From a virus: 64,000 bases of DNA. Positions 10,659 to 30,701 of the stretch are shown here, piece by piece. A program made the translations under genes and the position numbers. The stretch is taken from the IMG/VR virus record IMGVR_UViG_3300044950_000375, positions 1 to 64,000 of that record; one strand, 5' to 3'. The notes beneath the pieces are model-generated. The model did not search any database. It was not told where the DNA came from and was given only the letters and a program-made list of their open reading frames with translations. Positions within the stretch are counted from its first letter, which is position 1; every line of letters begins with the position of its first letter.

Positions 10659-11221
10659 CCCAACATTTCGTTAAACCAAATTTGCAAGGTAAAACGAGTT
10701 ATGTCTTTGGGAACATCATGATGTCTTCCGTGCATAACTTGCATGCCATGAAAGAACCAGGCAAAATTGTCCCGGTACGGCAACTGTACTAGTATCTCAC
10801 CTGCCTCATTGTAAATGGTTGTTCCTGAGTAATCGTGCGGAGTGTTAGTCAAGTACACCTGCATCATATAAGAGCCGCCTGCTTCTTTGTGTGGGCCCAA
10901 TGCACCAAACCCAGTGAGATCGGCCCATATACTGCTTACACTATGTTCTAATCTAATATTCAAGTGTTGTTCAATGGGTTGTTTGAATTCACTGCTATTG
11001 AAAAATTTCACAAGTTCGGCCCATTCGTCACCTTTTTCGTCAAATAAGTATCTAGGACGATTGCCAGTATCACGACACCAGTCTGGTTGAGGCCAATGTT
11101 CACATCCTGGTGTAAATTCTGCACACAGAGCATGCAGCTGATTTAATTGATCTGCACCAAATACCTGATCAATTAACAATACTTGACTGCCTGTTTCGGT
11201 GGTTAGTGTGTTTATGAGCAT
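10655..11221 (-). CDS. putative 2OG-Fe(II) oxygenase
   Basis: LGPHKE (HxE), MQVYL, GTTIY, distal MHG and conserved R (ITRFTLQ), consistent with a DSBH dioxygenase. Confidence 0.65.
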   Translation of the reverse strand: MLINTLTTETGSQVLLIDQVFGADQLNQLHALCAEFTPGCEHWPQPDWCRDTGNRPRYLFDEKGDEWAELVKFFNSSEFKQPIEQHLNIRLEHSVSSIWADLTGFGALGPHKEAGGSYMMQVYLTNTPHDYSGTTIYNEAGEILVQLPYRDNFAWFFHGMQVMHGRHHDVPKDITRFTLQIWFNEMLG

Positions 11222-12696
11222 ACTTTTATTCCATACAATGTTTCAAATCTATCAGCATCTGCGCGATCATTTACCATTGGTTCGCCGCGTATGTTCAAAC
11301 TTGTATTAAGCAACATAGGGCAGCCGGTCTCAGCATACCATGCTTCCAACAGCTTTCTTATACCTGATCCATCCCGGGGTACAGTTTGCACTCGACTAGT
11401 GCCATCAATGTGAATGATTGCTGGATACTGCTCCGGGAATCTACAGTGTGCAACCACTTGCATGTACCTGCTGTCACTCCAACACTTTGGCATGATAAAA
11501 TAACGATCAGCCAACTCTTGCAGTATTACCGGAGCAAATGGTCTAAACTTTTGGCGTCGTTTTATTGCATTGACTTGATCCTTTATGTCTGAACCTCTAG
11601 GATCTGCTAACAATGATCTATTGCCTAGGGCTCTGGGTCCGAATTCCGCTCGGCCAGATGCCACGCCCACAATACGATCAATGAGAAGAGCAGCCATGGC
11701 ACTGTCAACAGGATAATCACCAGGTATATCATGGCCAAGATTAGCACTAGTCCACTGAACACACCCGCCGTAAGCAAGAGCGGCGGCCCCCAGACTACTG
11801 CCAGCATCACCAGGACAAGGCATAATCCATATGTTATCAAAGTATTCACCTAACCTCCTATTGGCCAGGCAGTTTAGTGCTACCCCGCCCATGTAAACCA
11901 AGTTGTTGCTCCATCCAAAGTTTTTTGCACGAGTCATAACTTGATGTATTAGATATTCTGTAAGTTGCTGTGCTGATGCAGCAATATCTGCATTGGTTGC
12001 AAATCCCAAGAACTCCGGCTCAAGCCCTGTGTGTAAGTTTGATTTGAATCGCACTTGTTCTGGGTTGTCTACAAGTGTATCACGCATGACTTCAGTCCAT
12101 TGAGGCCTGCCCCAGCCAGCCATACCCATGGTGATGTATTCTTCGTCTAGTGGGTGTAGGCCAATGCGCTTAGTAATAGCAGAGTAGAATAAGCCAATTG
12201 AATGTGGATAACTTTGCGACCAAAGTTTTTTATATGTTGCGCGATAATTTTTATCATACATTGCTCCCCAGATTGACACTGTGTCCCATTCGCCCACAGC
12301 ATCTATCACAACCACTGTGGCTATGGGATAAGGTGACGTTTGAAAACCAGCAGCCGCATGACACAAGTGATGGTTGTAGTTTTTTATGCGTTTTCCACTA
12401 ATTCTATCGGCGCCAAGCTGTTGCTTGAGTATTTGTCTTGTGGTTACTTTGTTCCACTCAACGCCCTGCCCTGAGTACAATTGACGCAGTTGTTTCAGCC
12501 ACGGACGTTCATAGTACGCAACAGTGTCTACCTGACTCATGTCAATTTCGTCAAGCATGGCCATGGAAATATCAGCATCATTCTTTTGCTTGCTGTAGCG
12601 TTCTGAATGGCCGGCAAACACAATCTTGCCATGCTGATCTAGCAAGGTCAAGGCAGCGTCATGAAACCCTGCGGATACGCCTAGGGTGTGTTTCAT
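11212..12696 (-). CDS. carbamoyltransferase (NodU/CmcH/TobZ family)
   Basis: GFHDAA, ERYSK, HHLCHAA, GGVALNC, PGDAGSSLGAA, EFGPRALGNRS, FRPFAP, DGTSRVQTV, LNTSLNIRGEP. Confidence 0.95.
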   Translation of the reverse strand: MKHTLGVSAGFHDAALTLLDQHGKIVFAGHSERYSKQKNDADISMAMLDEIDMSQVDTVAYYERPWLKQLRQLYSGQGVEWNKVTTRQILKQQLGADRISGKRIKNYNHHLCHAAAGFQTSPYPIATVVVIDAVGEWDTVSIWGAMYDKNYRATYKKLWSQSYPHSIGLFYSAITKRIGLHPLDEEYITMGMAGWGRPQWTEVMRDTLVDNPEQVRFKSNLHTGLEPEFLGFATNADIAASAQQLTEYLIHQVMTRAKNFGWSNNLVYMGGVALNCLANRRLGEYFDNIWIMPCPGDAGSSLGAAALAYGGCVQWTSANLGHDIPGDYPVDSAMAALLIDRIVGVASGRAEFGPRALGNRSLLADPRGSDIKDQVNAIKRRQKFRPFAPVILQELADRYFIMPKCWSDSRYMQVVAHCRFPEQYPAIIHIDGTSRVQTVPRDGSGIRKLLEAWYAETGCPMLLNTSLNIRGEPMVNDRADADRFETLYGIKVCS

Positions 12697-12794
12697 TTGT
12701 AGATAAAAGGATCTCTTTTGCGTAGCTCTTTTAATTTTTTACGATAGCGGTACTCTAGCGTAATTCTGTTCCAAATACTTTTAATCCATTTCAT
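12693..12794 (-). CDS. 33-aa basic peptide translationally coupled to the carbamoyltransferase (not in ORF track)
   Basis: MKWIKSIWNRITLEYRYRKKLKELRKRDPFIYK*. It has ATGA overlaps with both neighbours and exactly fills the gap. Confidence 0.75.
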   Translation of the reverse strand: MKWIKSIWNRITLEYRYRKKLKELRKRDPFIYK

Positions 12795-13828
12795 TTCAAT
12801 CTCCTTATTTGCTGTTCACGATAGTCTGGATCGCTCCAGCGATAATTGTAGGTAGTTTCTCCCCATCCAGTGCGTATGCTCAACACATCAAGATGTTGGG
12901 CCAACTGTGCCCAAATCTTTTTATAATCTTCTGTGCCAAATGATCGCATTAGATCAACCTGTGCCACCTTTGGGTGACCAATGGTGAGACTTTTGTCCTC
13001 TGGATCAAACCCATTGTCCAGTAGCCAGGTGCGGAACTCTGCGAGCTTGGTCTTTTGCCAGTGATAAGCGCCTGGGTCACGGGCCCATTCGATATCAAAG
13101 TCGCCAGCGGCTTCAGTTTGTACACGCAGTCCTGTAGTAACCAGCTCGTTAACCCGCGAATCCCTACCTTCATCATTGAACACCTCCCAGTGATGTTTGC
13201 CAACTGCTTTATTTACACCCAAATAAACACCGCCTAGAGTTCTGTTGATGGTGTCTATACCAAATAACTCATAGTCTTCGGGCTCTAGTGCAAATCGCGG
13301 AGCATTTAACCAGCACATCAGCTGCGATGGTCTGCGCCATTCTGGTGCTTGTACTGCTTTACGCATGGATAGCACAAGGCTTTCCAATTCATGGCACAGC
13401 AAGTTTAGTTGACGTATGTGCCAGCGTGTGGCAGGATCGGCTGAATTGTAGTAATTTGAAATACCCCCTGACCATCCTTGTAGATCTTCAAAGTATCTGT
13501 GCAGTGAATTCATACGTTCATGGTTGATATCTAAGTCTGACTGTACGGTATTTTCTACTGTGTAAGCATCACAATCAATACAATAGCCAACGCCACTTCG
13601 ATTGATGTGATCAATACTAGTATTAATTTGCTCACAAAGGTATCGTGCATTTCGTTCACTTTCTGTCCAGCCCATCCAACAGTAATTCTTTTCCAGATGC
13701 AGATCAGTTCTAATGACGTCATTGAGCGCAGCCAACCATTTACGTCCCAAGCTGTTGTCATCTACATCTATATGTAGCGTTAGCAAGCTGTCCTTACCGC
13801 GTAGGTCTATTTCAATATGATCAAGCAA
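12791..13828 (-). CDS. hypothetical protein
   Basis: 345-aa ORF embedded in the minus-strand operon; no family recognised. Confidence 0.75.
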   Translation of the reverse strand: MLDHIEIDLRGKDSLLTLHIDVDDNSLGRKWLAALNDVIRTDLHLEKNYCWMGWTESERNARYLCEQINTSIDHINRSGVGYCIDCDAYTVENTVQSDLDINHERMNSLHRYFEDLQGWSGGISNYYNSADPATRWHIRQLNLLCHELESLVLSMRKAVQAPEWRRPSQLMCWLNAPRFALEPEDYELFGIDTINRTLGGVYLGVNKAVGKHHWEVFNDEGRDSRVNELVTTGLRVQTEAAGDFDIEWARDPGAYHWQKTKLAEFRTWLLDNGFDPEDKSLTIGHPKVAQVDLMRSFGTEDYKKIWAQLAQHLDVLSIRTGWGETTYNYRWSDPDYREQQIRRLK

Positions 13829-15110
13829 TTTGATCCCACCATTCTTTTATTTCTGGTCTTGCACTTAATATTTCTGCCATAGTGATCTTTTGAGTGCGTA
13901 TGCTTTCTAATTGTAACACTCTAGCCCGGCCTTTTGCAAGACCTGCGCGATATGTATCCGGCCATTGTTCTTCAAATGTAGGACGGGTTTTTAATTGTAG
14001 CAGTACATCACGCATGGCGCCAGCGGAGCGGCCTGCTAGTTCATCTATCCAAGGATCCAACAAGTGTCTAGGTAGCGCAAGTGGACTCATAATGATATCA
14101 GGTGAGAATGAGAATATCACTTTGGCTAATAATTGCACGCCAAGTTCGTTAGCTAACGCATTCATATTATCCACTTCAAACATGCCCGGCAGTGTGAGTG
14201 TAAAGTCCAGTCGCATCTGTCGAGTATTGGTAGCAATCTCTAGACCCTGACGAAAATTGTTTAAAAATATTGGATAGGAGAGACCGGTTCGGATGTATTC
14301 TCCGACGGGGCCTGTGCCGTCAAGGCTTGCGCAGATTTGCCAGTCTCGTAACCCCAACAAAATATCTTTATACAGATTCCAATCACCGTACTTAACACGG
14401 CTAAGATTAGTATTATATCTAGCGTAAACATTTTTTCCATCTCCTAGTTCAATGATGCGGCGCATGTAACGCCAATGCTGTTCGTACATGAGTGGCTCGC
14501 CGCCTACCCAGTAGATTTCTTCTACTCTGTGCTCTTCTACTGCACGACTGAATTCTTCTTCAATTTGTGTGTCTTGAAACTGTGTGATTTCTCTACGTAT
14601 ATCTGGCTGCATCCATGCATTTTTGGTATTACTCCAGTCGATCATTTGATGTTGGCGCTGTTCAGTTTCCCATGCACTACTTAACATATCTCCGCAGGTC
14701 CTGCATTTAAAATTGCATAAGTTTGAAAAACGATAGTCCCAACTTACAGGCAGCATCGAAGTACGGCCATTTAGATCAGTTTTGCCAATCACATCATCAT
14801 ATTTGTGTTGGAAAAGATGCCAAAAGTACGTGCGATAGACATCTGTGTTTAGCAGTTTATCATTGCATACTTCGCACTCTGGTAGTGTTTCACCGGCCAT
14901 CATGCGTCTGCGCACACTCTGCATGTGTGGTGAATTCCAGTGAGCTTCCAGTGTAACAGGGATATACCGTCCAGTGCCGGACCGGGTGTCTATGTATTGT
15001 TCAAAGTTCTGCGCAGGTTCTCTGCTGGCACAACACATTCTGCGTTCAGTTTGCGGACTCAAATATGTGTGAGTCCAAGGTGCCATGCATAGGGTTTCAG
15101 GCTTGTGCAT
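13821..15110 (-). CDS. radical SAM protein with N-terminal Twitch/SPASM-like module (1)
   Basis: CMAPW...MCC...CEVC, then CNFKCRTC and GGEP, YNTN, SLDG..EYIR. Confidence 0.9.
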   Translation of the reverse strand: MHKPETLCMAPWTHTYLSPQTERRMCCASREPAQNFEQYIDTRSGTGRYIPVTLEAHWNSPHMQSVRRRMMAGETLPECEVCNDKLLNTDVYRTYFWHLFQHKYDDVIGKTDLNGRTSMLPVSWDYRFSNLCNFKCRTCGDMLSSAWETEQRQHQMIDWSNTKNAWMQPDIRREITQFQDTQIEEEFSRAVEEHRVEEIYWVGGEPLMYEQHWRYMRRIIELGDGKNVYARYNTNLSRVKYGDWNLYKDILLGLRDWQICASLDGTGPVGEYIRTGLSYPIFLNNFRQGLEIATNTRQMRLDFTLTLPGMFEVDNMNALANELGVQLLAKVIFSFSPDIIMSPLALPRHLLDPWIDELAGRSAGAMRDVLLQLKTRPTFEEQWPDTYRAGLAKGRARVLQLESIRTQKITMAEILSARPEIKEWWDQIA

Positions 15111-16056
15111 TTAGTTGTTGTTCAATCCATCGGTAAGTTTCTGCAAGGCCAGTTTCTAAACTGTCTGGTGGTGCCCAATTTAATATTTGTCTAATCACAG
15201 TGTTGTCACTCACCCGACCCATTACTCCTTGTGGGCCGTTGATATTTTTAATATGCACTGGTTTGCCAACCACTGTGCTAATCAAGCGTACTAGATCATT
15301 CATGGTAATCATTCTGTCAGATCCAATATTAATAGGTTCAGTGTGTGCGCTGGCCATCAATCTATGTATGCCTTCAACACAGTCATCAATGTATAAGAAA
15401 CTGCGAGTTTGTGTGCCTGGTCCCCAAACTTCTACTGTGTCAGTTGCTTGTATGACTTTTCTGCACAGTGCAGCCGGAGCTTTTTCTTTTCCGTCATTAT
15501 AAGTGCCGTCGGGTCCAAATACATTGTGCAGCCTGGCCACACGCACATCAATGCCATAGTTTCTAGCATAACTTGCATACAGTCTTTCGCTGAATAGCTT
15601 TTCCCAACCATACTCACTGTCAGGCTCTGCAGGATACGCTGATGCTTCGTTTAGCACAGGATTGTCAGCATCCATTTGATTGCGTTTGGGGTAGATACAA
15701 GCTGAACTTGAGTAGAATATTTTGGGTATCTTTTTAAAGGTCATTTCATGCAGGATATTCAAATTGATAATGGCTGAATTGTGCATGATGTCAGCGTCAT
15801 TGTCCCCAATAAAGATATAGCCTGCACCTCCCATGTCTGCGGCCAACTGATATATTTCATCAATGTCTTTTCGAAGCAGTCGTGTGACACTGCGTTGATT
15901 GCGCAGATCAACTTGATGGAACTCATCGCAGGCGGTAATGCTAAATTCTGGAAACTTTAAATCAGCGCCAATTACATAATGACCCTGTGCTTTTAAACTG
16001 CGCACAAGATGTGTGCCAATAAATCCGCCTGCGCCACATACCAATATCTTTTTCAT
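15097..16056 (-). CDS. GDP-mannose 3,5-epimerase-like SDR
   Basis: GAGGFIG, LAADMGGAGYI, SSSACIYP, EPDSEYGWEK, KEKAPAALCRK, QTRSFLYIDDC are characteristic of GME. Confidence 0.88.
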   Translation of the reverse strand: MKKILVCGAGGFIGTHLVRSLKAQGHYVIGADLKFPEFSITACDEFHQVDLRNQRSVTRLLRKDIDEIYQLAADMGGAGYIFIGDNDADIMHNSAIINLNILHEMTFKKIPKIFYSSSACIYPKRNQMDADNPVLNEASAYPAEPDSEYGWEKLFSERLYASYARNYGIDVRVARLHNVFGPDGTYNDGKEKAPAALCRKVIQATDTVEVWGPGTQTRSFLYIDDCVEGIHRLMASAHTEPINIGSDRMITMNDLVRLISTVVGKPVHIKNINGPQGVMGRVSDNTVIRQILNWAPPDSLETGLAETYRWIEQQLNAQA

Positions 16057-16652
16057 TTTTCTATTTCCTGCTGATAGTATTCAGCAACCTGCTGATGAAG
16101 CTGACTGTCGGTAATATGATAGTACGGACGATAACATCTTGCAGTCACATGGTCCCACAAGTTGTATTCACTGCGGTATTCACTGTATTGATCAAAATAA
16201 CCTCCTGTACCGCCAAAACTTGCATGCTCAAATCCACCCTGGTCAAATCTAAATGGTCGGTTGCTCTGCACCAATTTGCGCAAGGTGTGTTCTATTGTGA
16301 TGGCATTTTGATATATAGCAAGATCTAAATCAAAAAACTCTGTGTAGTATTCTTTCAAAATTCTTAATGAATTTTGATCAAATGGTGTGGTAATTTCACT
16401 AGCAGTATGATAGCTGAATGGCACATATTCACCGGCATGCAATTTTTCGCCGCGTGTGCAACTTGTAAAATGCACAATCACAAACTCAGCCTTGTCTTGG
16501 ATGGCCTGATTCACCTGGCGTGCTATCAACAGATTGGTGCTGGTGCGACGACTGTAGTTACGCACCTCACAATGCTGGCCCAACAAGTCAGCCCACATTG
16601 GCCCATATTCTGGGTCTGGTGCACAAAAACTATCACCACATATAGCTATCAC
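16053..16652 (-). CDS. SGNH/GDSL-like hydrolase or acyltransferase
   Basis: N-terminal CGDSF block, TSTN block II-like motif, C-terminal YH.. Confidence 0.55.
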   Translation of the reverse strand: MIAICGDSFCAPDPEYGPMWADLLGQHCEVRNYSRRTSTNLLIARQVNQAIQDKAEFVIVHFTSCTRGEKLHAGEYVPFSYHTASEITTPFDQNSLRILKEYYTEFFDLDLAIYQNAITIEHTLRKLVQSNRPFRFDQGGFEHASFGGTGGYFDQYSEYRSEYNLWDHVTARCYRPYYHITDSQLHQQVAEYYQQEIEK

Positions 16653-17617
16653 AAAAACTCCTGTATTACATCAATGATTTCTGTCTTGAATTGACGATGA
16701 ATTATGCTTGTGTCAAAGTAATGATGTTTGTTGTGTTGTAGTTTCTGTTCAGTCACAGCATCAAACTTGCCTGTGCTATAATTTTTCACTGCATCAAATA
16801 CCACAGCAGTGGTTGCTGCAAGTCGTTGATTGTCATCTAAGATTTTGTCGTAATCTTCAGACCAGAGATTTGAGAACGTTTCAAACCCTTCACGCTGCAA
16901 GTATCTGCAGGTACCTTCGCTACCATAGCACACAAACGGATGATATAATGCAATGGGTTTGAAAATCTTTTCACTCACTTCTGTTCTGGAGCTGCTGGCA
17001 TTTTCTAGCAGCACAGCAGAACGCATCCAGCTTTCTACCACCACCGAAAAAGCTGTGGTGTTGTACCATTCAGGATTCATGTACAGGTGCCAAATTACTC
17101 TGGGATTGGCTTCTCCGGGATCGTCAAATGTTCGCCCACGCTCCACATAACTCCAACGAGCATGTGGCAACAAAGGCGCTAGATCTTGTGTGACACGGTC
17201 TTTGTGTTTGCGTATCTTGTTTAACAGCATGAGAAATGAATACTGCACATTGCGCTGCGGTTGATATTGATTGTATTCAAAATTTGTTACAGTTAGGGCA
17301 CTGTTGTACCACAACCAATTTCCACAGCGTAATTCCAGCATGAGTGGATCAATCAGTCTACTACCAGTATCTACATCACTGTCGTACAAATGGTCCACAA
17401 CAATGCGGAATCCTGCCTGTTGAAAATAACGATACCAAGCAGACTCTGGGTTTTTGGCACGCCAAAAAGTTGTTAAGATCACAGTGTCTGCACTATTATA
17501 ATTAACACCTGGCTGGTATTGCACTAGATCAAAGTGCTGTTGCACCAGGTGAGCAATAGCACCTTGTGTGAAATTGGGGTAGTCCTCCTCTAAATATAAC
17601 AATTTAATTTTGGTCAT
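16649..17617 (-). CDS. putative glycosyltransferase, GT10/GT-B-like (paralog 3)
   Basis: FSVVVES...VSEKIFKPIALYHPF...LQREGFETF..WSEDYD. Confidence 0.6.
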   Translation of the reverse strand: MTKIKLLYLEEDYPNFTQGAIAHLVQQHFDLVQYQPGVNYNSADTVILTTFWRAKNPESAWYRYFQQAGFRIVVDHLYDSDVDTGSRLIDPLMLELRCGNWLWYNSALTVTNFEYNQYQPQRNVQYSFLMLLNKIRKHKDRVTQDLAPLLPHARWSYVERGRTFDDPGEANPRVIWHLYMNPEWYNTTAFSVVVESWMRSAVLLENASSSRTEVSEKIFKPIALYHPFVCYGSEGTCRYLQREGFETFSNLWSEDYDKILDDNQRLAATTAVVFDAVKNYSTGKFDAVTEQKLQHNKHHYFDTSIIHRQFKTEIIDVIQEFL

Positions 17618-18824
17618 TGTGATAGTTTAAAATATCAGCCAATTCTGGTGCAACGTCACGCAAGTTTTGTTCTCGTTTGCGATCCAAGTCACGTATCTTC
17701 ATGTTGGTCATAAACCCATCAGTACTTGCACCATTATTCATAAAGTCAATAATGCGATTGAATTCTTCACGGTATTTAGATGGCACTGACGCCGAGCGCA
17801 AATGTTCTGTAATTTGCGCCTTGGCCGAGTCTGGCAGTGTGGCAATTGAAAAATACCATGCGTCATGCATGATATTCCAGTACATAAAGTCAAACCGTTG
17901 CAGTGCTATCCAGTGTGCTAGTTGGTCAATATAACGCACATTAAACACATTGACGGTACTACAGCATTGTAAACGTAGGTTGGGCAGAGAATCTTTGAGA
18001 TATTGAAAACTTGTAATGTTGTCCAGCACCACAGCCCAATCTGCATTGGTGCGTTGATATTCAAATCTTGCACCCACATCGTCAATTGAGAATGCTACTT
18101 CTACTGTTTTAAAATGTCGCCAAATTTCTGGTCCGCGTGTGGGCCATTGTGTGCCATTTGTGTTGTAGTGTATTTCAACTTGATGTGCAATACCACGATC
18201 CACAATGCCTTGCAACATATCAAAGTGTTCAGCAATCATAAATGGTTCACCACCGGTGAATTCAATGTAACGTATGTCATTTAAACAGGTGTCAATTTCT
18301 GTCCAAAATGATTGATTTTCTCTGGGCCAAGCGCCGGCACGAAGCATTTGATAGGGAAATGATTTCTTTTTGTCTTCATCAGGCGGCATATCATTGAGCT
18401 CTTCTGTGGCAAATTGGCTTGATGACCATGATCCGCATATACGGCATTTTAAATTGCAGATGTTGCCCAGTTTTAAATCCAAGAACATTAAGGGCTTGGC
18501 GTCTGCGGTCCATTCACCTGATATGCCCATGTGCTTCATTCTGTCTAGTGTGTGCATGCGTTTTGACGTGCGTCCTGACCGTTCTTCCATCCAGCATTTT
18601 CTACAGGTCTGTGGTTTCTTGCCTGCTAAAAATTCTTCACGCAGTTCAGTCATTGCCCGAGAGTTTTGTATGCTTGCAAAGTCAGCTGTGAGCAATGAAA
18701 ACTTTTCACCGTTATCATCCGTCAGTTCGTCGTCGGCTAAACAACATGGGCGCACTGTGCCAATGGGCGAAGCTTCTAGGCTAACCCAGGGCAATACGCA
18801 AAATTTATCGTGTGGTATGTTCAT
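17604..18824 (-). CDS. radical SAM protein with N-terminal Twitch/SPASM-like module (2)
   Basis: CVLPW...PCC...CRKC; CNLKCRIC; TGGEPF; YNTNGT. Confidence 0.9.
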   Translation of the reverse strand: MNIPHDKFCVLPWVSLEASPIGTVRPCCLADDELTDDNGEKFSLLTADFASIQNSRAMTELREEFLAGKKPQTCRKCWMEERSGRTSKRMHTLDRMKHMGISGEWTADAKPLMFLDLKLGNICNLKCRICGSWSSSQFATEELNDMPPDEDKKKSFPYQMLRAGAWPRENQSFWTEIDTCLNDIRYIEFTGGEPFMIAEHFDMLQGIVDRGIAHQVEIHYNTNGTQWPTRGPEIWRHFKTVEVAFSIDDVGARFEYQRTNADWAVVLDNITSFQYLKDSLPNLRLQCCSTVNVFNVRYIDQLAHWIALQRFDFMYWNIMHDAWYFSIATLPDSAKAQITEHLRSASVPSKYREEFNRIIDFMNNGASTDGFMTNMKIRDLDRKREQNLRDVAPELADILNYHNDQN

Positions 18825-20197
18825 AAGTTATATTTTTTAAATTCATCAACCAGCCAGGGAAATACTGTGGGCCAATGTGTGTTACGTCTGTGATCCATTG
18901 TATTTAAAAAATCAAACAACTCTCGTATTTGTTTTGGCTTGGGCCCACCATGTTTACTTTGTTTTGCTATGCCCACAAGATAGTGTTTGCTGGCAATCTC
19001 TTCTGGCGTTTGGGTGGGTTTTAAACTGATTGCAAGATCAAAGTCTTCACAAAATATATCTCCAAACAAATCAATAAACATGTGATCAGGACTGTTAACA
19101 GAGTTTTGATAGTGATATACTTTTCTTTTAAGATTCCATTGATTTATCTTGTGCAACAAGTCTGGTAATGTCTTTACAGTTAACGGAGTCACAGTGGAAG
19201 AAACAATCAAATTGATCCAAGATTGATCCAGCAAATATTCAAAGTTTCTTTCCCATTCTTGTAAGTTTAAGGGATATCGCACATATTCCTGTGGTGCACC
19301 CCAACAGTCCAGGCTGGCAGTAATTTCAAATTCTCTAATGCTTCCACGGTCAATCAACTTGCGAACTCGTTGCACTATCTTTTGCAGGTATGGCAATCGA
19401 GCATTTAAATTTGTAAACATTTGCAATTTAAGCTCAGGCGCTGGATACTGCTCAAATAATGTAAGGCATTGTTCTAACTCTGGCTGATACAGTGGTTCAC
19501 CGCCCAGGATGTTGAACACTGTGAGTGTATGCCCGTGCAGTTTCAACCATTCAAATAGTTTTTGTTTGTTGCTTTCGATGTTGGTGCTTTTGGCAAATGC
19601 AGGAATACCATGCCGCACATTCTCAGCGTCCCATAAACTGCTAAAATGCGGGCCGCAATAAAGACATTTTAAATTACAAGCGTTGTCAAAATACACTTCT
19701 AGTATTCTGGGAGTAACATGTACTGCCACAGGATTCTGATCCAGTTCAGGTGGTGCATGTATACCGGGAAAATCCAAGTTTGTTATTCTATCACTTTGAC
19801 CACCTGCTGCTTCAATGTCTTGACAGTAGGTGCATCCTTTTGCAGGCCATTTGCCGTCAAGCATTCTCATGCGATCATCTATTTTGGTAGCTGTGTTATG
19901 AAAATCAAAGTCAGAACCAAATTTATGCCCATTGGTTCTATGACAACTGGCAGTTTGATCAGTGGTTAAAAATATTGTACTCCAGGTCCATTTGAGTTGG
20001 CAAGCTGTGTTGCTCACAATGGGAAAACGTTTGTTAATCAATTTGGATTTGTTTTGAAAACTGACCGGAACATATCCAAATTGATTGATACATTCTGATT
20101 GAATTGATTCTGGAAGTTGTGTGAAATTTTCTTCAGACTCGCAATCCGGCCACTGTGGGTCACGTACAGCTGAATAAAACTCTTTCCATGTGCTCAT
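18821..20197 (-). CDS. radical SAM protein (3), extra N-terminal W..FY..VRD..WPDC module
   Basis: CQLKW...SCHR...CTYC; CNLKCLYC; LGGEPL. Confidence 0.9.
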   Translation of the reverse strand: MSTWKEFYSAVRDPQWPDCESEENFTQLPESIQSECINQFGYVPVSFQNKSKLINKRFPIVSNTACQLKWTWSTIFLTTDQTASCHRTNGHKFGSDFDFHNTATKIDDRMRMLDGKWPAKGCTYCQDIEAAGGQSDRITNLDFPGIHAPPELDQNPVAVHVTPRILEVYFDNACNLKCLYCGPHFSSLWDAENVRHGIPAFAKSTNIESNKQKLFEWLKLHGHTLTVFNILGGEPLYQPELEQCLTLFEQYPAPELKLQMFTNLNARLPYLQKIVQRVRKLIDRGSIREFEITASLDCWGAPQEYVRYPLNLQEWERNFEYLLDQSWINLIVSSTVTPLTVKTLPDLLHKINQWNLKRKVYHYQNSVNSPDHMFIDLFGDIFCEDFDLAISLKPTQTPEEIASKHYLVGIAKQSKHGGPKPKQIRELFDFLNTMDHRRNTHWPTVFPWLVDEFKKYNL

Positions 20198-21453
20198 TTT
20201 AATGCTGCTAATTCTGGAATTGTATCCAGGATGTTTTCCGTTCGTATAGCATCAAGTTCGTTTGTTTTGCGCCAGAATGTATCTATTAGGTGTGTGTTGT
20301 CTGTGGCATTCATAAAGGTAATAGCTGATTCAAAACCTTGTGTGGCACGATTTAAAGGGTCCTGCCCGTGAAGCCATTGGATATGACTTTGATACAGTGC
20401 TGTGAGTGAGTGTTTGTATTCAGCTGTGGCAATGTCTATTCTATAGTGTACAGGATCTTGCAGGATATTTACATTTAAATCCTGTGCGCGGATCAGACCT
20501 TTTTCCACCCAGTCACGATGGAAATTGGGCAGGTGCCAGGCATTCATTATGCTCAAGGTAGGTGAAATGTAGAAATCCACTTCAGGGCACACACGCAACA
20601 TATCACGTCTGTTCTGTTCTACTACGGCCCAGTCTGTGCCTTTTCTAATGTATTCGCCACGGCTACCCGATGCGTCTAGACTTGCACCCACTGCCACTGA
20701 TCGAAACTGTTTCCAGTATTCAAATACACTATTGCCTTTTAAATCAGTGTGTGTGAAGTTTGTGTTGTAGATCAGTCGCACATCAAAGCGTTTGCGACGG
20801 ACCAGCTCGTCTAGAATGCGGTAGTGTTCTTCCATCAACAGTGGCTCACCACCGGCAAAGTAGATTTGTTCTACATAATCCAAATGGGGCTCCAGTTGCG
20901 ACCACATGTCTGTTTCCGTGCGGCCAGCATAGTTAAGAACTGTGTTGCGAGCTTTCCAGTCACCGCCTGCTAGTTTCACTTGATCTTGATACCATTGTGA
21001 GCTAAAGATATGCCCACATGATCTACACTTTAAATTGCATAGGTTTGAAAAACGAATATCCCAGTAAGTCATTTCAAATGGATTTTCCGCCAGCTTCTTT
21101 ATGTGATGTCCATGATGTTTGTTGGCTGACTTACGGCCTGAAAAGAATCCTGACTCTTCCTGCTCATAACAGCGTGTGCAGGCGGCGTGTGGCGTTTCGC
21201 TCAACATATCTGCACGTAGTTTCTGCATGGGTGCATCCTGCCATATTTCTGCCAGTGTAGTTGTACGGCAATTGCCCACTATGCCTGGTTTCATTTCAGC
21301 ATGGCAACAGGGATATGCTTCGCCAGTGGGATAGGCGTGTAAATGAATCCAAGGATAGATGCAAAAGGTCTTGGACTCTTTTAATAAGAATTCTTCACGT
21401 TTTGTTAATTCTGTGGGTCTTACTAGATCTGTTGAGTTGTAATTATAGCTCAT
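20194..21453 (-). CDS. radical SAM protein with N-terminal Twitch/SPASM-like module (4)
   Basis: CIYPW...PCC...CTRC; CNLKCRSC; AGGEPL. Confidence 0.9.
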   Translation of the reverse strand: MSYNYNSTDLVRPTELTKREEFLLKESKTFCIYPWIHLHAYPTGEAYPCCHAEMKPGIVGNCRTTTLAEIWQDAPMQKLRADMLSETPHAACTRCYEQEESGFFSGRKSANKHHGHHIKKLAENPFEMTYWDIRFSNLCNLKCRSCGHIFSSQWYQDQVKLAGGDWKARNTVLNYAGRTETDMWSQLEPHLDYVEQIYFAGGEPLLMEEHYRILDELVRRKRFDVRLIYNTNFTHTDLKGNSVFEYWKQFRSVAVGASLDASGSRGEYIRKGTDWAVVEQNRRDMLRVCPEVDFYISPTLSIMNAWHLPNFHRDWVEKGLIRAQDLNVNILQDPVHYRIDIATAEYKHSLTALYQSHIQWLHGQDPLNRATQGFESAITFMNATDNTHLIDTFWRKTNELDAIRTENILDTIPELAALK

Positions 21454-22774
21454 TGTACCATTCTATTAAGTTGGGAAACGCAGTACCAAAGTCTTTATTT
21501 CGTCGTTGATCATATTGTGTATAAAACTGTTTAAAATCATTTAGCAGTTTGGGCATTTCAAATGCGTCTGAATGCGGAGTTTTCACTACATCTAAGTAAT
21601 CAATTAATCTTTGTAGATGATTGATCTCATGTTCGTGTAAGAATTCACTTTGGCTGTTTTGTGTGAGCCAAGTTTCTAATACTGTTTTGTAGTGTGTTTT
21701 TGATGCGTCTGGCAGTATCAGCGGGCTTTGAAATGATGGAAAGCGCAGAATATTTAATGTGAATGACACAGCATCGCGCCCGTATTCTGTTTTCCATTGC
21801 AGTATGCATTCCAGCAATTGATCCAGGCTGTCCAGGCACAGTGCGTTAATGGTACACATCACATGTATGCCGCGGAACTGTCCAGAGTCTAGCAGTCTTT
21901 TGACAGTATTAGCCCAACTGTCCCACTCGAGCCCGTCACGAATGTATTCGGCTTGCAGTCCGACTGCTTCATTTGAAGTGTACAAATCAATTGCCATGCC
22001 TTTTGTGCTTGAGAGCAAACGGTCGATGTCCACTTGTGATCCCAGGTTACTATTGATAGCCAAGCGTGTGCTACTCTTGCCTGAATTTGTTTTAAACCAG
22101 TCAATGAGCCGCCAGGTGTGAGCAGACATGAGGGGTTCTCCTCCGGTGATTCTGAGCTCTTGCAGTGTGCGATGCAGATCCGACTCCCACCACTTAAAAA
22201 ATGCATCAATGTAAGGATTGCTTTCTCCATAATCGTAAAGTTGTGCGTTAGCATGATCATGGGTAAAATGGTTGCGACCATCACTGACCAAGTTCTGGTA
22301 AGCTCCGTTGCGTCGGATGTCTTTAACCCATGTTGAACTGAAAGCTGGATTACAATAGCTACAAGCAAACTGACAAGTGCGATCAAAAGCGATCTCAAGA
22401 GTTCTAAGGTTGACGTCTTCAGTGTATGGTGTATTTCTAGCTTCATTTAGGGCCTCTATGGGATATATCTTTGATTTGTACACACGGTCACTCACAGCAT
22501 CGCGACCCATGTCTTCAATTTTCCAACAGTACTCGCAGCCAGGGGGACGCTCCCCTGCGATCATCTTGCGACGATCTTCTTTCTTTTGATCGGTATTGTG
22601 CAGCAGCCTAGAGTTGATACTGACTTTATCTTTGTCGATCAAATGGGCTGGCGGGTGATGACAACTTGTGGTCTGTCCACTTCCTAACCAAATGGTCGCG
22701 TTGTACCATTTTGCTGCACAAAAACTGGCTGAGAGAGGGTCTAATACTGTGTGTTTGAATTCTAAATCATTCAT
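21443..22774 (-). CDS. radical SAM protein (5)
   Basis: CAAKW...SCHH...CEYC; CQFACSYC; TGGEPL. Confidence 0.9.
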   Translation of the reverse strand: MNDLEFKHTVLDPLSASFCAAKWYNATIWLGSGQTTSCHHPPAHLIDKDKVSINSRLLHNTDQKKEDRRKMIAGERPPGCEYCWKIEDMGRDAVSDRVYKSKIYPIEALNEARNTPYTEDVNLRTLEIAFDRTCQFACSYCNPAFSSTWVKDIRRNGAYQNLVSDGRNHFTHDHANAQLYDYGESNPYIDAFFKWWESDLHRTLQELRITGGEPLMSAHTWRLIDWFKTNSGKSSTRLAINSNLGSQVDIDRLLSSTKGMAIDLYTSNEAVGLQAEYIRDGLEWDSWANTVKRLLDSGQFRGIHVMCTINALCLDSLDQLLECILQWKTEYGRDAVSFTLNILRFPSFQSPLILPDASKTHYKTVLETWLTQNSQSEFLHEHEINHLQRLIDYLDVVKTPHSDAFEMPKLLNDFKQFYTQYDQRRNKDFGTAFPNLIEWYNEL

Positions 22775-23829
22775 TTGTTTGAGTTGATAAATTGAAAGAA
22801 TCTCGCGGGCAACTGGTCCATGTGCTGACGAGCAAACTCTTGAAGATGCTGTTGATTGTATTTACAAATGGATTCCGCTGCCTGGACAAAAGCCCCAAGG
22901 TCTTGACTGCACAGGTCCTGGATAGTGTGGACCATGCGATCCATGCGATCTTGGTTGTTATCTAACTGATCAAATGTTTCATCAATCAAACTGTGAAACG
23001 TTTGGAACCCAAGGTCACGCAGATCACGATAGAATCCGTAATTGGCCACAGCAACAAACGGGTGGCCAATAGCAAGTGGTTTACACATTTTTTCTGAAAA
23101 CAAACTCCACGGATAGTTATAAACAGTTTCTGTAACTACTGAAAAATAAGTGTCAATATATGGCTCAGGTTTAATGTAAATTTCTCCCCATTCGTTATTG
23201 AACAATTGTGCTTTTACATACCCTGATTCCACAGCAGTGCCGTGATATCTATCAACTTCGTAATAGGCAGGCAACAATCGAATTGGCCTTAGATGATCAT
23301 CAAGATTGGTCCACAGAGCACCATCAAGCAGGCCCAATTGCTCCAGCTGATTTAGTATAGCACATCTATGCGGTCGACCGCGACCATTTAGGCACAAAAA
23401 AGAATAGGGTTTTGTGAGTTTGGAAAAGATTTCGGGTGTGCGTTTGCAGGCTTCTTTATTTTCTTCATATCTAAAAGGTTGTGTTAGAAAATGTTCAAAC
23501 AGCATGCAATTGTATTCAGGAGGCATGCGACCACCACCTATCAGTTGAATTTGGCCGCCAAGCACCAGATCTTCAACGCCATATTTTCTTAGGTGCCATA
23601 ATAAAGTTTCTGAACCTTCTGCAGGATTGGCAAATATAATTTGACATTGCTCACACATGCTTCTCACACGATGGCCGTTCAGTCGCAGTTGCTCACGACC
23701 TATCAAATACGTGGCTCCAGGCACCACAGGTAGTTTTTCAAATTCATAATACAATTCGTCAGCGTAAGGGTGCAAAAACTCAGTGAGCTCAGTGCAAGCG
23801 TCAAGATAAAACATTAACGGTGACTCCAA
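22771..23829 (-). CDS. putative glycosyltransferase, GT10/GT-B-like (paralog 4)
   Basis: FLCLNGR.RPHR; FSVVTET...FSEKMCKPLAIGHPF...LRDLGFQTF..IDETFD. Confidence 0.6.
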   Translation of the reverse strand: MESPLMFYLDACTELTEFLHPYADELYYEFEKLPVVPGATYLIGREQLRLNGHRVRSMCEQCQIIFANPAEGSETLLWHLRKYGVEDLVLGGQIQLIGGGRMPPEYNCMLFEHFLTQPFRYEENKEACKRTPEIFSKLTKPYSFLCLNGRGRPHRCAILNQLEQLGLLDGALWTNLDDHLRPIRLLPAYYEVDRYHGTAVESGYVKAQLFNNEWGEIYIKPEPYIDTYFSVVTETVYNYPWSLFSEKMCKPLAIGHPFVAVANYGFYRDLRDLGFQTFHSLIDETFDQLDNNQDRMDRMVHTIQDLCSQDLGAFVQAAESICKYNQQHLQEFARQHMDQLPARFFQFINSNK

Positions 23830-25211
23830 TATTCACATTCTGCCCACCATGACTTCATTTCGGGAAAGGTTTTTAAAAAGTCAGTGCCTCTGCGTCGATC
23901 GTGTTCCTGAAAGAATCTATAAAAGTCTGCCTTGGCTTGGGAATGATCTTTGTCCTGCCCTGCTCGCATCCACGCAATATCTCTATCCAACCGTGCTATT
24001 TCGTAGTCTTTGAATCCGTGGAATGGATCTTCGGGGGTTTCACTCTGTCGTATCATCCAGGCCCACAAGTGTTCCAGCCGGTCGGCATAGGCTTCAGGTA
24101 GGATTTGCAAGCTCTGCCAAGCAGGTTCACGCAGTACAGGTGTGTCAAACCACACACGCTGATAGGTCCGTGAGTATGTGTTACGCAAGCCCAAGATGCC
24201 AGCAAACAAGTTTTCCAAGCTGGTCACTGATAAGTTGTTCATAGTAACAATAAATGTTAAGCTATTGTAACTAGGCACTTCTGTTAGGAATTGATTTACT
24301 CTATCCCATAGCAGGTCAAAATCAAGTCCGTGGCGCATGTATTCTGCTTGTGAGCCCCATCCGTCTAAGCTCACATACTGCATGAAATGTTCGATACGCC
24401 CATCGCATAGTTGTTTCACATAGCCCAGATATTTTTGCCATGACTTTTCATCCACAGAGAAGTTTGATGTAACATTCAAATGCAGTTTGGCAGACGGATT
24501 GGCCAACACATGATCAAACACTCTATATGTGTTTTTATCTAGCAGGGGTTCCCCGCCTGTCATGCGGAAGTGTACAAGCTCGGGATACAGAGTAGGCCAC
24601 CACTCCCAGAATGCTTCTACATAAGGGTTATGCTCTCTAACCGGTATAACCCGGCGATCTCCACCAAAATGCCCAGGATCATTGTGAACACGAGCAGTAG
24701 GGTAGCCGCCCGATCGGTCCACTTCTTGTTGCCAGCTGCTAGAGAATTGCGGACTGCAATAACTGCACATGAGATTACACACATTATTAAAATTAACCTC
24801 AACGTAGCTAGGGATAACGTCATTTTCTTCTCCTGTAGAGTTCTGGATCTGTGCAAAGTCCACAGCGGCCCAGGGCTCGCCTGATCGATAGTGTCTATCA
24901 CTCAGTTTGTTTTCTGCTTCCATGTTCCAGCAGTATTCACACTCTGCGGGCTTTTCGTTCTGTAGCATCATCACACGTTGCGCTTTCTTGTGCGGTGTGT
25001 TGTGCAAGGATCCAGGATTGGCTGCAAGATTTTCCACAGGTATCTTGTGCAGTGGCGGATGGTAACAGGAGTTGTTGAGTCCTGTGGGCAAGTGCAGGCT
25101 GACCTGTTTCCATTTAGCAAGACACAGCGCAGGTCCTAGATTCTCTTTCATCTGTTCAGCAGAGTTTAAGAAACGACTTTTGTTGTCTACTGTTTCGTCG
25201 CCTTTGTTCAT
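23814..25211 (-). CDS. radical SAM protein (6)
   Basis: CLAKW...SCYH...CEYC; CNLMCSYC; TGGEPL. Confidence 0.9.
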   Translation of the reverse strand: MNKGDETVDNKSRFLNSAEQMKENLGPALCLAKWKQVSLHLPTGLNNSCYHPPLHKIPVENLAANPGSLHNTPHKKAQRVMMLQNEKPAECEYCWNMEAENKLSDRHYRSGEPWAAVDFAQIQNSTGEENDVIPSYVEVNFNNVCNLMCSYCSPQFSSSWQQEVDRSGGYPTARVHNDPGHFGGDRRVIPVREHNPYVEAFWEWWPTLYPELVHFRMTGGEPLLDKNTYRVFDHVLANPSAKLHLNVTSNFSVDEKSWQKYLGYVKQLCDGRIEHFMQYVSLDGWGSQAEYMRHGLDFDLLWDRVNQFLTEVPSYNSLTFIVTMNNLSVTSLENLFAGILGLRNTYSRTYQRVWFDTPVLREPAWQSLQILPEAYADRLEHLWAWMIRQSETPEDPFHGFKDYEIARLDRDIAWMRAGQDKDHSQAKADFYRFFQEHDRRRGTDFLKTFPEMKSWWAECEYWSHR

Positions 25212-25759
25212 ATTGTCAATAGTTGTTGTTTGTAAAGATCATCAATTGGTGCCTCAGCACCATAGTTTTCATAGCAATCCCATGCAAAATCAAACCAGAA
25301 ATTTTTAATATCCAATTCTTTGCGCATGATGTCACCAAAGGGTGTGGTATCTGTAGCAATGTCAATTAGTACATCGCAGTCCCAGTCTTGTGTTTTATAG
25401 TAGTCTTGATGCCACACAATCATGTCAAACATATGAGATACTTGTTGTTGTTGACTGCAAGGCTGCCAATGATATTTCATTTCTACTTCCCATTCTCTAC
25501 AAAGACTTGGTTTCAAATCAAATTTAATTTTTCTTATTTCGTGACCTGGCCATAATCGCTTGATGTTGGCAGTGTTTAATGTATGAGTTATTTGTATTGT
25601 ATTAACGTCAAACAATTGAGTTGTAATACAAGTATCCAATGCATATCGTATGGGCATGGAATCATTGTGCATGTGAGCACCACGTTTGCCAAAAAATCGA
25701 TTTTGCAAAAACAATTTGTAACGATGGCCTCCGCTGCCCGGATAAAATCCAACAATCAT
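25208..25759 (-). CDS. hypothetical protein, possible sulfotransferase/P-loop-like fold
   Basis: 183 aa; N-terminal beta-strand plus YPGSGGH loop; ATGA-coupled on both sides. Confidence 0.5.
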   Translation of the reverse strand: MIVGFYPGSGGHRYKLFLQNRFFGKRGAHMHNDSMPIRYALDTCITTQLFDVNTIQITHTLNTANIKRLWPGHEIRKIKFDLKPSLCREWEVEMKYHWQPCSQQQQVSHMFDMIVWHQDYYKTQDWDCDVLIDIATDTTPFGDIMRKELDIKNFWFDFAWDCYENYGAEAPIDDLYKQQLLTI

Positions 25760-26847
25760 AGATTGCCTTTGAGATCACTGTTTAACAGTTTTTGTTGAGA
25801 AATGTCTGCATAAGTTAGTGTGTTGCCGTGATTGTGTGTCCAAGCACTGTGCTCAATCAGTGCTTTATGATTCATTTGGTCTGCTGTGTAAGGCAAAGCA
25901 TATGAACTGGGATTGATTTGTGTCCATTTATTGTAGTATTCAAGGCAGGCTGGTGAATTGGCAATCAACTGTGTTTTTTGTTGCAGTGTATGAAGCTTGA
26001 TTGGTACTCCAGAAACCAGTATGCCCTGATCTTGAAGATCCTGAATAGCTATTCTACAACGAGTATAAAGATCAATATTGCTAGACATAAATTCTTTTTC
26101 TTCATTGGAGAACACATGATCAAAAGGCACCAAGCTCAGCAAAAAGTGCATGCGATTCCAATCAGTCCAGGTAATATCCCAACGATCATGCCAGGTCCGA
26201 CCTGGCATGGGTTTTTGAAAAACTCTTAGGTTCAAAATATACTGCTCAAGATCAGCAAGATCTCTTTCATATTCAAAATAACTGTTGACTTGAAAGTGAC
26301 GGTCTACCCATTCCATGTACTCCTGATACTGATTTAGATATTTTTCAATCATTTCTGCTTGCACAGTTACTGGATTGGATAAAATTTTGTTGTAGATTGT
26401 GTGTTTTTCTTCAAACGAGTAAACGTTTAGTTTTTTAGCTTCCACTGCAATGCACCAACTCATTACATGTTCAAACAAATTCTTTCGACGAGCTGCAATA
26501 ATATAAAAGTTTTCATTGAGGTATTTGTAAAACGCCAGTTGATCGTTTGTGCTGTCTTGACGCTTCTTTAGGTGATAATGTGCCAGACGACTCACAATAT
26601 CGTGATCACAGTTATCAATCATACCAGTTATGGTTTGCAAAGTTTGATGGTAGCCCCAGCCGTCTTGTTTTTTGCCTATAACTGATTGGTTGAACGTTTC
26701 GTTGTGATAACTTACTAGGCCGTTGGTCAACTCATGCAGATTAATTGTTAGTGGATTGTAGTTTTCATTGATGTTTGCATAGATTGTGATCAATCGTTGC
26801 AATAATGTTGACCCCACTCGATCCGGAGTAAGTATTAGAACATTCAT
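25756..26847 (-). CDS. sulfotransferase-like protein (Stf0-type motifs)
   Basis: ILTPDRVGSTLL resembles the 5'-PSB loop; RRKNLFEHVMSW resembles the 3'-PB motif; FEYE. Confidence 0.55.
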   Translation of the reverse strand: MNVLILTPDRVGSTLLQRLITIYANINENYNPLTINLHELTNGLVSYHNETFNQSVIGKKQDGWGYHQTLQTITGMIDNCDHDIVSRLAHYHLKKRQDSTNDQLAFYKYLNENFYIIAARRKNLFEHVMSWCIAVEAKKLNVYSFEEKHTIYNKILSNPVTVQAEMIEKYLNQYQEYMEWVDRHFQVNSYFEYERDLADLEQYILNLRVFQKPMPGRTWHDRWDITWTDWNRMHFLLSLVPFDHVFSNEEKEFMSSNIDLYTRCRIAIQDLQDQGILVSGVPIKLHTLQQKTQLIANSPACLEYYNKWTQINPSSYALPYTADQMNHKALIEHSAWTHNHGNTLTYADISQQKLLNSDLKGNL

Positions 26848-30346: not shown

Positions 30347-30648
30347 CGTTTGGTGCTAACTTCGTTGTGTTCCAACAGCCAAGCATTCATTTGCTCTTGC
30401 CAACGTTGCATGGCCAAGCTGCGCAGTTCTTCTGGACGTATTTGTACTGGAGTTTCATACAAGTCTAACAGAACTGCATCTCCTGGCGGCACAGTAGCCA
30501 AGATGTTTAGGAGTTCAGGACCAGCACGCCACATGCCACCGCTGTGGGCAAATATCATTCGGGCTTGATATTTCTCTTGAAGTATGCGCTTGGCAGCCAC
30601 ATGGTCAAATCGAGCACGGCTGTGCGAAATTAAATCGTCAGTGTTCAT
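30343..30648 (-). CDS. small hypothetical protein, possible tail-fibre assembly/chaperone-like
   Basis: Likely start MNTDDL at 30648 directly after a promoter; lies next to fibre genes. Confidence 0.55.
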   Translation of the reverse strand: MNTDDLISHSRARFDHVAAKRILQEKYQARMIFAHSGGMWRAGPELLNILATVPPGDAVLLDLYETPVQIRPEELRSLAMQRWQEQMNAWLLEHNEVSTKR

Positions 30649-30654
30649 GTTACG

Positions 30655-30683
30655 ATTGTACAGGATGTACAGGGAAAAGTAAA
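30655..30683 (-). promoter_or_regulatory. sigma70-like promoter (probably leaderless) for the 30648->27544 GT operon
   Basis: Minus strand TTTACT, 17 nt, TACAAT, 6 nt, ATG. Confidence 0.55.
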
Positions 30684-30701
30684 GGGGCAACAGCCCTTTT
30701 T
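30675..30701 (-). terminator. probable intrinsic terminator ending the tail operon
   Basis: Minus strand AAAAAGGGC-TGTT-GCCCCTTTACTTTT, immediately after the stop codon at 30704. Confidence 0.55.

Follow-up and report, generated by a model that had tools for sequence, protein, structure and literature searches.

A fixed-order row of five N-terminal-twitch radical SAM genes in a lineage of large T4-like lake phages

The window analysed here is a 64-kb stretch of phage DNA (64,000 nucleotides, positions 1 to 64,000 of the IMG/VR virus record IMGVR_UViG_3300044950_000375). It contains seven genes for radical S-adenosylmethionine (SAM) proteins, five of which form a row that is conserved in content and order among related phages. 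The first-pass annotation of the sequence had placed six clustered open reading frames (ORFs) between 13821 and 25211; all six are present there on the minus strand, and the seventh, at 62347–63960, is also real. The genes are named below by their lower coordinate. In the list they follow the direction of transcription of the cluster, with their scores against the NCBIfam model NF033640 (N_Twi_rSAM, "twitch domain-containing radical SAM protein"):

23814–25211, minus strand: type B N_Twi_rSAM paralog of 465 residues, which opens the conserved five-gene row; 319.2 bits.
21443–22774, minus strand: type B N_Twi_rSAM paralog of 443 residues; 287.6 bits.
20194–21453, minus strand: type A N_Twi_rSAM paralog of 419 residues, the top match to the family model; 385.6 bits.
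18821–20197, minus strand: type B N_Twi_rSAM paralog of 458 residues, an accessory copy; 206.9 bits.
17604–18824, minus strand: type A N_Twi_rSAM paralog of 406 residues; 333.4 bits.
13821–15110, minus strand: type A N_Twi_rSAM paralog of 429 residues, which closes the conserved row; 277.7 bits.
62347–63960, plus strand: seventh N_Twi_rSAM paralog, 537 residues, outside the cluster and with an N-terminal extension of approximately 125 residues; 268.8 bits.

All seven paralogs exceed the curated NF033640 cut-off of 170 bits (207–386 bits), with alignments that span the model from positions 1–3 to positions 388–398, and the cut-off was reached in none of 14 control genomes. The count of seven radical SAM genes in 64 kb of phage DNA, which the annotation had singled out, is thus borne out. 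A profile made from the seven proteins retrieved 6,824 representatives with E ≤ 1e-30 from 1.84 billion proteins that had been clustered at 50% identity.

The conservation of the genes was determined in related loci. A relative of the 20194 protein is encoded by 232 viral contigs, and 80 loci were kept for the counts. Since the loci were retrieved with the 20194 protein as the query, its own count is complete by construction. The conservation of the six clustered genes, with the ratio of nonsynonymous to synonymous substitution rates (dN/dS), is as follows:

23814: orthologs in 77 of 80 loci; the seven cluster cysteines kept in 58 of 58 unique orthologs; dN/dS 0.071.
21443: orthologs in 78 of 80 loci; cluster cysteines kept in 58 of 58; dN/dS 0.099.
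20194: orthologs in 80 of 80 loci; dN/dS 0.080.
17604: orthologs in 79 of 80 loci; dN/dS 0.104.
13821: orthologs in 71 of 80 loci; cluster cysteines kept in 54 of 54; dN/dS 0.095.
18821: orthologs with at least 50% identity in 2 of 80 loci.

Across the five row genes, the cluster cysteines are retained in every unique ortholog (54/54, 57/57, 60/60, 58/58 and 58/58). The median dN/dS of the row genes is 0.07–0.10, a rough estimate because dS is saturated at 1.4–2.2. The gene order 23814 > 21443 > 20194 > 17604 > 13821 occurs in 64 of the 80 loci, and four loci seem to be without 20194 in this count only through the greedy filtering of ORFs. The five genes form a fixed-order cassette, to which 18821 is accessory and from which 62347 stands apart. 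All seven genes are intact, belong to the uncharacterised family NF033640, and are under purifying selection. Complete relatives of the phage carry 6–10 copies above the NF033640 cut-off and 13–16 matches to Pfam Radical_SAM.

Alignment of the seven proteins confirms that each has an auxiliary cysteine module ahead of the CxxxCxxC core, as had been annotated. Seven cysteines are invariant (numbering of the 13821 protein): four in the N-terminal module (C8, C27, C79, and C82) and three in the core (C132, C136, and C139). The front module is approximately 100 residues long, and its cysteines are spaced C-x18-C-x(36–51)-C-x2-C. Pfam SPASM matches residues 31–96 of the 20194 protein (E 9.2e-12), residues 9–78 of the 17604 protein (E 3.5e-5), residues 132–200 of the 62347 protein (E 2.2e-4) and, below the cut-off, residues 8–83 of the 13821 protein (E 1.1e-3). 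Positions 1–67 of the 67 in the SPASM model align to the N-terminus of these four type A proteins, three of which are above the cut-off. The type B proteins have no Pfam SPASM match and are joined to the module only through NF033640, which aligns to them from model position 1–3. C-terminal positions of the NCBIfam models for StsB, NirJ2, the ACGX enzyme, and a Geobacter maturase align to residues 31–108 of the 20194 protein; positions 332–392 of 466 of StsB correspond to residues 43–102, and positions 246–307 of 326 of NirJ2 to residues 41–108. These alignments indicate that the N-terminal module of the phage proteins is homologous to the part that is C-terminal in the canonical enzymes.

The module contains four cysteines and no additional invariant one, and would fit one fully ligated auxiliary [4Fe-4S] cluster; for the same reason it is better described as a twitch than as a SPASM domain. 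The auxiliary cluster of BtrN uses four cysteines. We take the cysteine spacing of the phage module to resemble that of BtrN, which aligned to the module only at E 3.1–6.3. The canonical twitch domain is positioned C-terminal to the partial TIM barrel, and the module is N-terminal in all seven phage proteins. The inverted architecture that was proposed from the sequence is real in all of them, but it was already catalogued: the N-terminal twitch architecture is not new, because NF033640 is defined by it. In its part on the SPASM/twitch megacluster, the RadicalSAM.org paper describes some additional conserved cysteines as N-terminal to the barrel.

The paralogs had been divided into types A and B and interpreted as a lineage-specific expansion. 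Both proposals were compared with a tree of 113 proteins (quick IQ-TREE, LG+G4 model, support from the SH-like approximate likelihood ratio test), which comprised the seven copies of the window, 16 scattered ones from complete relatives, and the 90 homologs that remained of 170 from genome contigs after clustering at 45% identity. Sequences from the contigs L091 and L092 are labelled as cellular in the tree although they bear the same cassette; they are probably phage contigs binned into metagenome-assembled genomes (MAGs). Both types of motif are as described, and type B is a true clade: its three window proteins belong to one 11-member group with 100% support that includes a Bdellovibrio isolate, and all 11 members carry CxxKW and SC[H/Y/C][H/R]. 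Type A is not a clade, and was rejected as one, as its four proteins are scattered across the tree and four label changes are needed. The 20194 copy is positioned with Bacteroidota proteins, the 17604 and 62347 copies in another large group, and the 13821 copy on a long branch; Bdellovibrionota proteins are also present in the family tree.

The seven paralogs are 18–33% identical to one another, and 18–26% identical to the first paralog. For every window paralog there is a separate partner in the tree on L091 or L092, which are marine MAG contigs with the same cassette at 35–68% identity. The 18821 copy groups with one located elsewhere in a complete relative and one in L091, and the 62347 copy is paired with one of the scattered copies from a complete relative. 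A recent lineage-specific expansion is rejected by the tree: because every copy has its own counterpart in distant cassettes and type A is scattered, the seven copies are ancient paralogs.

The record from which the window was taken is 81.5 kb long and has a CheckV completeness of 23%. The window is T4-like, with a gp6-type baseplate wedge, a gp5-like hub, and a gp55-type late sigma factor. Some of the related loci are on contigs of 342–364 kb that are 97–100% complete, two of them with terminal repeats. Words of the region are present in lake-water metagenomes, with at least half of the sampled words found in 15 of the 24 listed runs. No cultured phage matched the region in a Megablast search. 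The five-gene cassette is common to a widespread lineage of T4-like lake phages with genomes of approximately 350 kb. Two contigs of a Haliscomenobacter MAG, L089 and L090 (NZ_JBBAKG010000001.1 and NZ_JBBAKG010000003.1; 183 and 148 kb), encode orthologs of the 20194 protein with 85% and 81% identity. They are probably DNA of this phage lineage that was binned with a Bacteroidota genome. They give a weak hint at the host, which agrees with the placement of the 20194 copy next to Bacteroidota proteins.

Scans for regulatory signals in the window gave results at chance level: TATAAATA has two occurrences versus 2.7 expected, sigma-70 sites number 48 versus 45.7, and terminators 16 versus 16.4. 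The only sizeable gap upstream of the operon that holds the cassette is at 30343–30699 (minus strand). It contains a terminator-like hairpin at 30699–30681 and a promoter-like site at 30683–30655, which are to be read against the chance-level outcome of the promoter and terminator scans overall. An unlisted ORF of approximately 100 residues begins in the gap at 30647 on the minus strand. Between this gene island and the baseplate genes is an ORF of 5022 residues (34326–49394, minus strand), whose product is a possible acceptor or fibre protein.

The partner genes of the cassette, including members of a variable family of glycosyltransferase (GT)-like proteins, are:

27544–28476, minus strand: conserved protein without family, 310 residues, upstream of the row; invariant L64, D66, G67, D68, and N69 (D-G-D motif).
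22771–23829, minus strand: GT-like family member, 352 residues, variable, between the first two radical SAM genes; paralog of 7345–8457, 8441–9634, and 16649–17617.
16649–17617, minus strand: GT-like family member, 322 residues, variable; paralogous to the other three members.
15097–16056, minus strand: NAD-dependent epimerase/dehydratase of the short-chain dehydrogenase/reductase (SDR) type, variable; Pfam Epimerase E 2e-45, GDP_Man_Dehyd E 1.2e-26.
12791–13828, minus strand: conserved protein without family, 345 residues, fixed partner of the last radical SAM gene; 75% mean column identity among 15 orthologs.
11212–12696, minus strand: carbamoyltransferase of the NodU/CmcH type, the conserved end of the cassette; Pfam Carbam_trans_C E 6.3e-47, Carbam_trans_N E 1.6e-37.

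The genes from 26847 down to 12791 overlap one another by 4–16 nucleotides. The radical SAM genes, an SDR epimerase gene, and the carbamoyltransferase gene belong to a single operon of tightly overlapping genes, and a DegT aminotransferase is nearby in the island. The sugar-handling genes of the island are the SDR epimerases at 15097 and 2161, the DegT aminotransferase at 3053, and the carbamoyltransferase at 11212. Three partners keep their positions relative to the row. The gene for the 12791 protein comes immediately after the 13821 ortholog in 70 of 71 loci, that for the carbamoyltransferase no more than five genes after it in 68 of 71, and that for the 27544 protein no more than six genes ahead of the 23814 ortholog in 71 of 76. 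The 12791 protein has no match in Pfam, PHROGs, or the PDB, and its profile gave only chance-level results against PDB sequences. For the 27544 protein, only a faint GT2-like match was obtained (E 0.05), with chance-level results for its profile against PDB sequences; the protein is 28% identical over 145 residues to the C-terminal part of a 1068-residue repeat protein at 4140–7346. Pfam (E ≤ 10) and PHROGs gave no function for the unnamed proteins of the island. The protein at 25756–26847 (363 residues) has no Pfam or PHROG match; its N-terminal segment may resemble the 3'-phosphoadenosine-5'-phosphosulfate-binding loop of sulfotransferases.

The GT-like genes 7345–8457, 8441–9634, 16649–17617, and 22771–23829 form one four-member family with a shared C-terminal region. 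The family is present in 73 of 80 loci, and a member is located between the first two radical SAM genes in 56 of 76 loci and between the 17604 and 13821 orthologs in 32 of 78. The annotation had described the radical SAM genes as interleaved with GT10-like genes. The interleaved family of paralogs is real, but its membership of GT10 could not be shown; GT10 clusters in a protein atlas score 0.78–0.79 for the family, below the threshold of the atlas, and are a lead only.

Sugar editing, as proposed in the first-pass annotation, is a reasonable interpretation given the operon shared with the SDR epimerase and the carbamoyltransferase and the DegT aminotransferase nearby. It is the most likely of the readings considered, with an even chance that the phage enzymes edit a sugar-based substrate. 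In such a pathway, one soluble substrate would be common to all the paralogs, each of which would take a hydrogen atom from a different position of it by means of a 5'-deoxyadenosyl radical, and the fully cysteine-ligated auxiliary cluster would serve as an electron conduit rather than as a ligand of the substrate. The substrate would be a glycan or a nucleoside diphosphate (NDP)-sugar intermediate on which the variable GT-like family, the SDR epimerase, the DegT aminotransferase, and the carbamoyltransferase act as well. The kind of edit, whether oxidation, epimerisation, deoxygenation, or C–C bond formation, cannot be told from the sequence. None of the 28 island proteins has a transmembrane-like segment, although hydropathy by itself is a weak test. 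This points to a soluble, cytoplasmic pathway, and a pathway for a surface glycan linked to undecaprenyl phosphate was rejected on this ground. The acceptor would be cytoplasmic; a virion fibre protein is one candidate, solely from the position of the island beside baseplate and fibre genes.

Several results weigh against a sugar substrate, the assignment of which derives from local context alone. At a threshold of 50% identity, orthologs of the epimerase are present in 8 of 80 loci, those of the 16649 gene in two, and those of the 22771 gene in six, so that these partners are not retained as orthologs. No glycosyltransferase signature was detected for the GT-like family: it has no Pfam match at E ≤ 10, including PF00852 (GT10), and no PHROG match. 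Its profiles, built from four or 18 sequences, produced only chance-level results against PDB sequences. Among 5.8 billion proteins, the profile found 2,995 relatives, and none of the 120 listed is named or has a Pfam domain. NTP_transferase is absent from all five complete relatives, and any NDP-sugar must therefore come from the host. No paper on the NF033640 family or its phage arrays, and no characterised member, was found in the literature. The analogy to BtrN and NeoN, which had been invoked in the annotation, has no sequence support: profile searches of PDB sequences gave E-values of 3.1 and 6.3 for BtrN, and a search with a single protein gave no match at all. The best relative with a solved structure is instead a peptide-modifying enzyme, the cyclopropyl synthase entry 8VPO, which is matched in the core only (E 1e-7).

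The match to 8VPO, together with weaker ones to YydG and SkfB, is an argument for the alternative that the enzymes modify a protein or peptide. They would cross-link, epimerise, or in other ways edit the side chains or the backbone of a phage protein, such as a fibre or the 5022-residue structural protein, or a small precursor peptide, in the manner of the SPASM/twitch maturases for ribosomally synthesized, post-translationally modified peptides (RiPPs). Weak matches to NCBIfam models of sactipeptide and ranthipeptide maturases point in the same direction, as do the structural genes adjoining the island and the recurrence of Asp/Asn beta-hydroxylase-type neighbours in Bdellovibrionota loci. 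However, the PDB matches span only the generic core, for which sugar enzymes (BlsE) and viperin score similarly. A Pfam scan of the six clustered radical SAM proteins detected no RiPP recognition element or PqqD-type domain at E ≤ 0.01, and the genes of the operon overlap, so that a precursor gene would find no space between them. The island also contains the DegT aminotransferase, the SDR epimerases, and the carbamoyltransferase, which are, to our knowledge, unusual in RiPP clusters. On balance, protein or peptide modification appears improbable.

The distribution of the family in cells also weighs against a sugar substrate. Relatives are encoded by 199 stretches of genome contigs, 80 of which were kept; most of these are from Bdellovibrionota MAGs, where the genes occur in arrays of two to eight. 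Of the 175 neighbouring ORFs, 145 were scanned: 39 encode other radical SAM proteins, only six GT2 and five SDR proteins, and most have no Pfam family. Apart from other radical SAM proteins, GT2 is the commonest named neighbour, which is a point in favour of the sugar reading. BLAST clustering of the neighbours yielded a GT2 group of ten and an Asp/Asn hydroxylase group of five. A member from Nereida is found with GT90 and GT2. In Paenibacillus polysaccharolyticus (L099:6302–14305), an N-twitch radical SAM gene is positioned between genes for an acyl carrier protein (ACP), a ketoreductase-type SDR, two ketosynthases, and a GT2, a context predicted to be lipid- or polyketide-like. Among truly cellular relatives, the one nearest to the 20194 copy belongs to a Saprospiraceae MAG (L093:155–16935) and is in a cluster with five PhyH dioxygenases, a WelO5-type halogenase, a UbiA prenyltransferase, a CMAS-like methyltransferase, an ABC ATPase, and two radical SAM genes, which looks like an uncharacterised natural-product or lipid pathway. 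Cellular members are thus not consistently found in sugar contexts and, because the single contexts differ widely, membership of the family does not predict a sugar substrate.

The Paenibacillus and Saprospiraceae clusters, as well as recurring B12-radical SAM neighbours, would suit a tailoring of lipids or alkyl natural products, in which the enzymes act on unactivated C–H bonds of an acyl, isoprenoid, or glycolipid chain and the product is a small molecule or a modified lipid. No ACP, ketosynthase, prenyltransferase, or membrane protein was found in the phage island, and its named genes are of sugar-nucleotide types; it is unlikely that the phage cassette acts on lipids.

The relationship of the phage to T4 raises the alternative that the island makes a modified base or sugar on phage DNA. 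T4-like phages carry glucosyl-hydroxymethylcytosine in their DNA, a ThyX gene is located at the edge of the island, and the enzymes are all soluble. A gene of the ThyA family, to which the dCMP and dUMP hydroxymethylases belong, is absent from all five complete relatives, which speaks against glycosylation of hydroxymethyl-pyrimidine DNA. The Pfam and PHROG scans detected no known DNA-glycosyltransferase signature, and the cassette is in the structural region. We consider DNA hypermodification very unlikely. The co-occurrence of DegT aminotransferase, carbamoyltransferase, and radical SAM families is also reminiscent of the synthesis of an aminocyclitol, an aminoglycoside-like product, by the successive action of a radical SAM dehydrogenase, an aminotransferase, and a carbamoyltransferase. 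None of the five complete relatives has a gene of the 3-dehydroquinate synthase family, which includes the 2-deoxy-scyllo-inosose synthases; this speaks against an aminocyclitol pathway, as does the lack of a significant relationship to BtrN, and makes such a product extremely unlikely.

The paralogs may act jointly on their substrate, as fusions of cassette neighbours suggest. Among the best 150 representatives of the family, 29 are fusions of two or three almost full-length units. Of these, the closest follow the order of the cassette: 23814 with 21443, 20194 with 17604, and 17604 with 13821. The fusion of 23814-like and 21443-like units, 950 residues long, is represented by four sequences from four contigs. 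Five other fusions that were looked up are singletons and could be artefacts of gene calling.

The annotation had remarked on a large demand for iron–sulfur (Fe-S) clusters on the host. The remark is apt, but the complete relatives bring part of the machinery themselves: each of the five encodes IscU (179–185 bits) and two A-type carriers (55–69 bits). The IscU gene stands beside one or two carrier genes, and it abuts a carrier gene in the three relatives compared by coordinates, G002, G004, and G005 (for example G002:C1:307616–308291 and G005:C1:259792–260775). No flavodoxin or plant-type ferredoxin was found in the five complete relatives, and no Fe-S carrier in the fragment to which the window belongs. 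It is possible, though doubtful, that the five N-twitch enzymes work as a physically associated, O2-independent radical assembly line supplied by the phage's own IscU and A-type carriers. Alongside a new family of transferases, they would decorate a phage fibre or other cytoplasmic acceptor with a hypermodified sugar through one or more radical SAM reaction types that are new for carbohydrates.

No reaction is known for NF033640, a large family whose members typically occur in arrays, in predatory bacteria and in abundant giant phages of lakes and the sea. The fixed row of five enzymes under strong constraint is a well-defined system for new radical chemistry, and could reveal what is made by the large non-structural islands that giant phages carry beside their fibre genes. 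The arrays give a concrete reason for the presence of Fe-S assembly genes in such phages. The cultured Vibrio phages K566 and K567 (OZ196521.1) provide an experimental entry point. They have two copies above the NF033640 cut-off and three at 133–155 bits. In K566, a 255-kb phage, four N-twitch-like radical SAM genes are clustered among hypothetical proteins (L183; OZ196521.1:161548–168284), and one of the match regions includes a TAA.

The radical SAM enzymes BtrN, NeoN, HygY, AprD4, and DesII act on sugars in antibiotic pathways. With them there is precedent for sugars being oxidised, epimerised, and deoxygenated by radical chemistry beside aminotransferases and carbamoyltransferases. The phage proteins have no significant sequence relation to them; no sugar cyclase of the 3-dehydroquinate synthase family was found in the five complete relatives, and the phage has five to seven paralogs, compared with one. 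The canonical SPASM/twitch enzymes (BtrN, anSME, MoaA, SkfB, BlsE, and the TvgB-type 8VPO) share with the phage proteins the core motif and one extra cysteine-rich module, which corresponds by homology to the first half of the SPASM domain and with its four cysteines suits one auxiliary cluster. The module is behind the barrel in the canonical enzymes and in front of it in the phage enzymes. The relation to canonical PDB sequences is confined to the core, with E-values of 1e-7 for 8VPO, 1.5e-3 for BlsE, and 3.1, which is not significant, for BtrN.

T4-like phages with many radical SAM genes and Fe-S carriers are already known from the literature. The relevant passages of Nishimura et al. 2017 (PMC5332604) describe marine T4-like uncultured viral genomes with genes for A-type carriers and/or IscU and up to 12 radical SAM genes, to which the relatives of the window, with 13–16 Radical_SAM matches, IscU, and two A-type carriers, are similar. 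The genomes in those passages are marine and smaller (183 kb), whereas the relatives described here are lake phages of approximately 350 kb, and the same passages contain no mention of the N-terminal twitch family, a fixed gene order, or GT-like partners. The Vibrio phages K566 and K567 resemble the window in having multiple copies of the family, four of five of them clustered. Their proteins are only 20% identical to the 20194 protein of the window, and the partner genes are different and all hypothetical. Compared with the other members of NF033640, the phage proteins show no structural difference; the particular feature of the phage is the fixed row of five genes.

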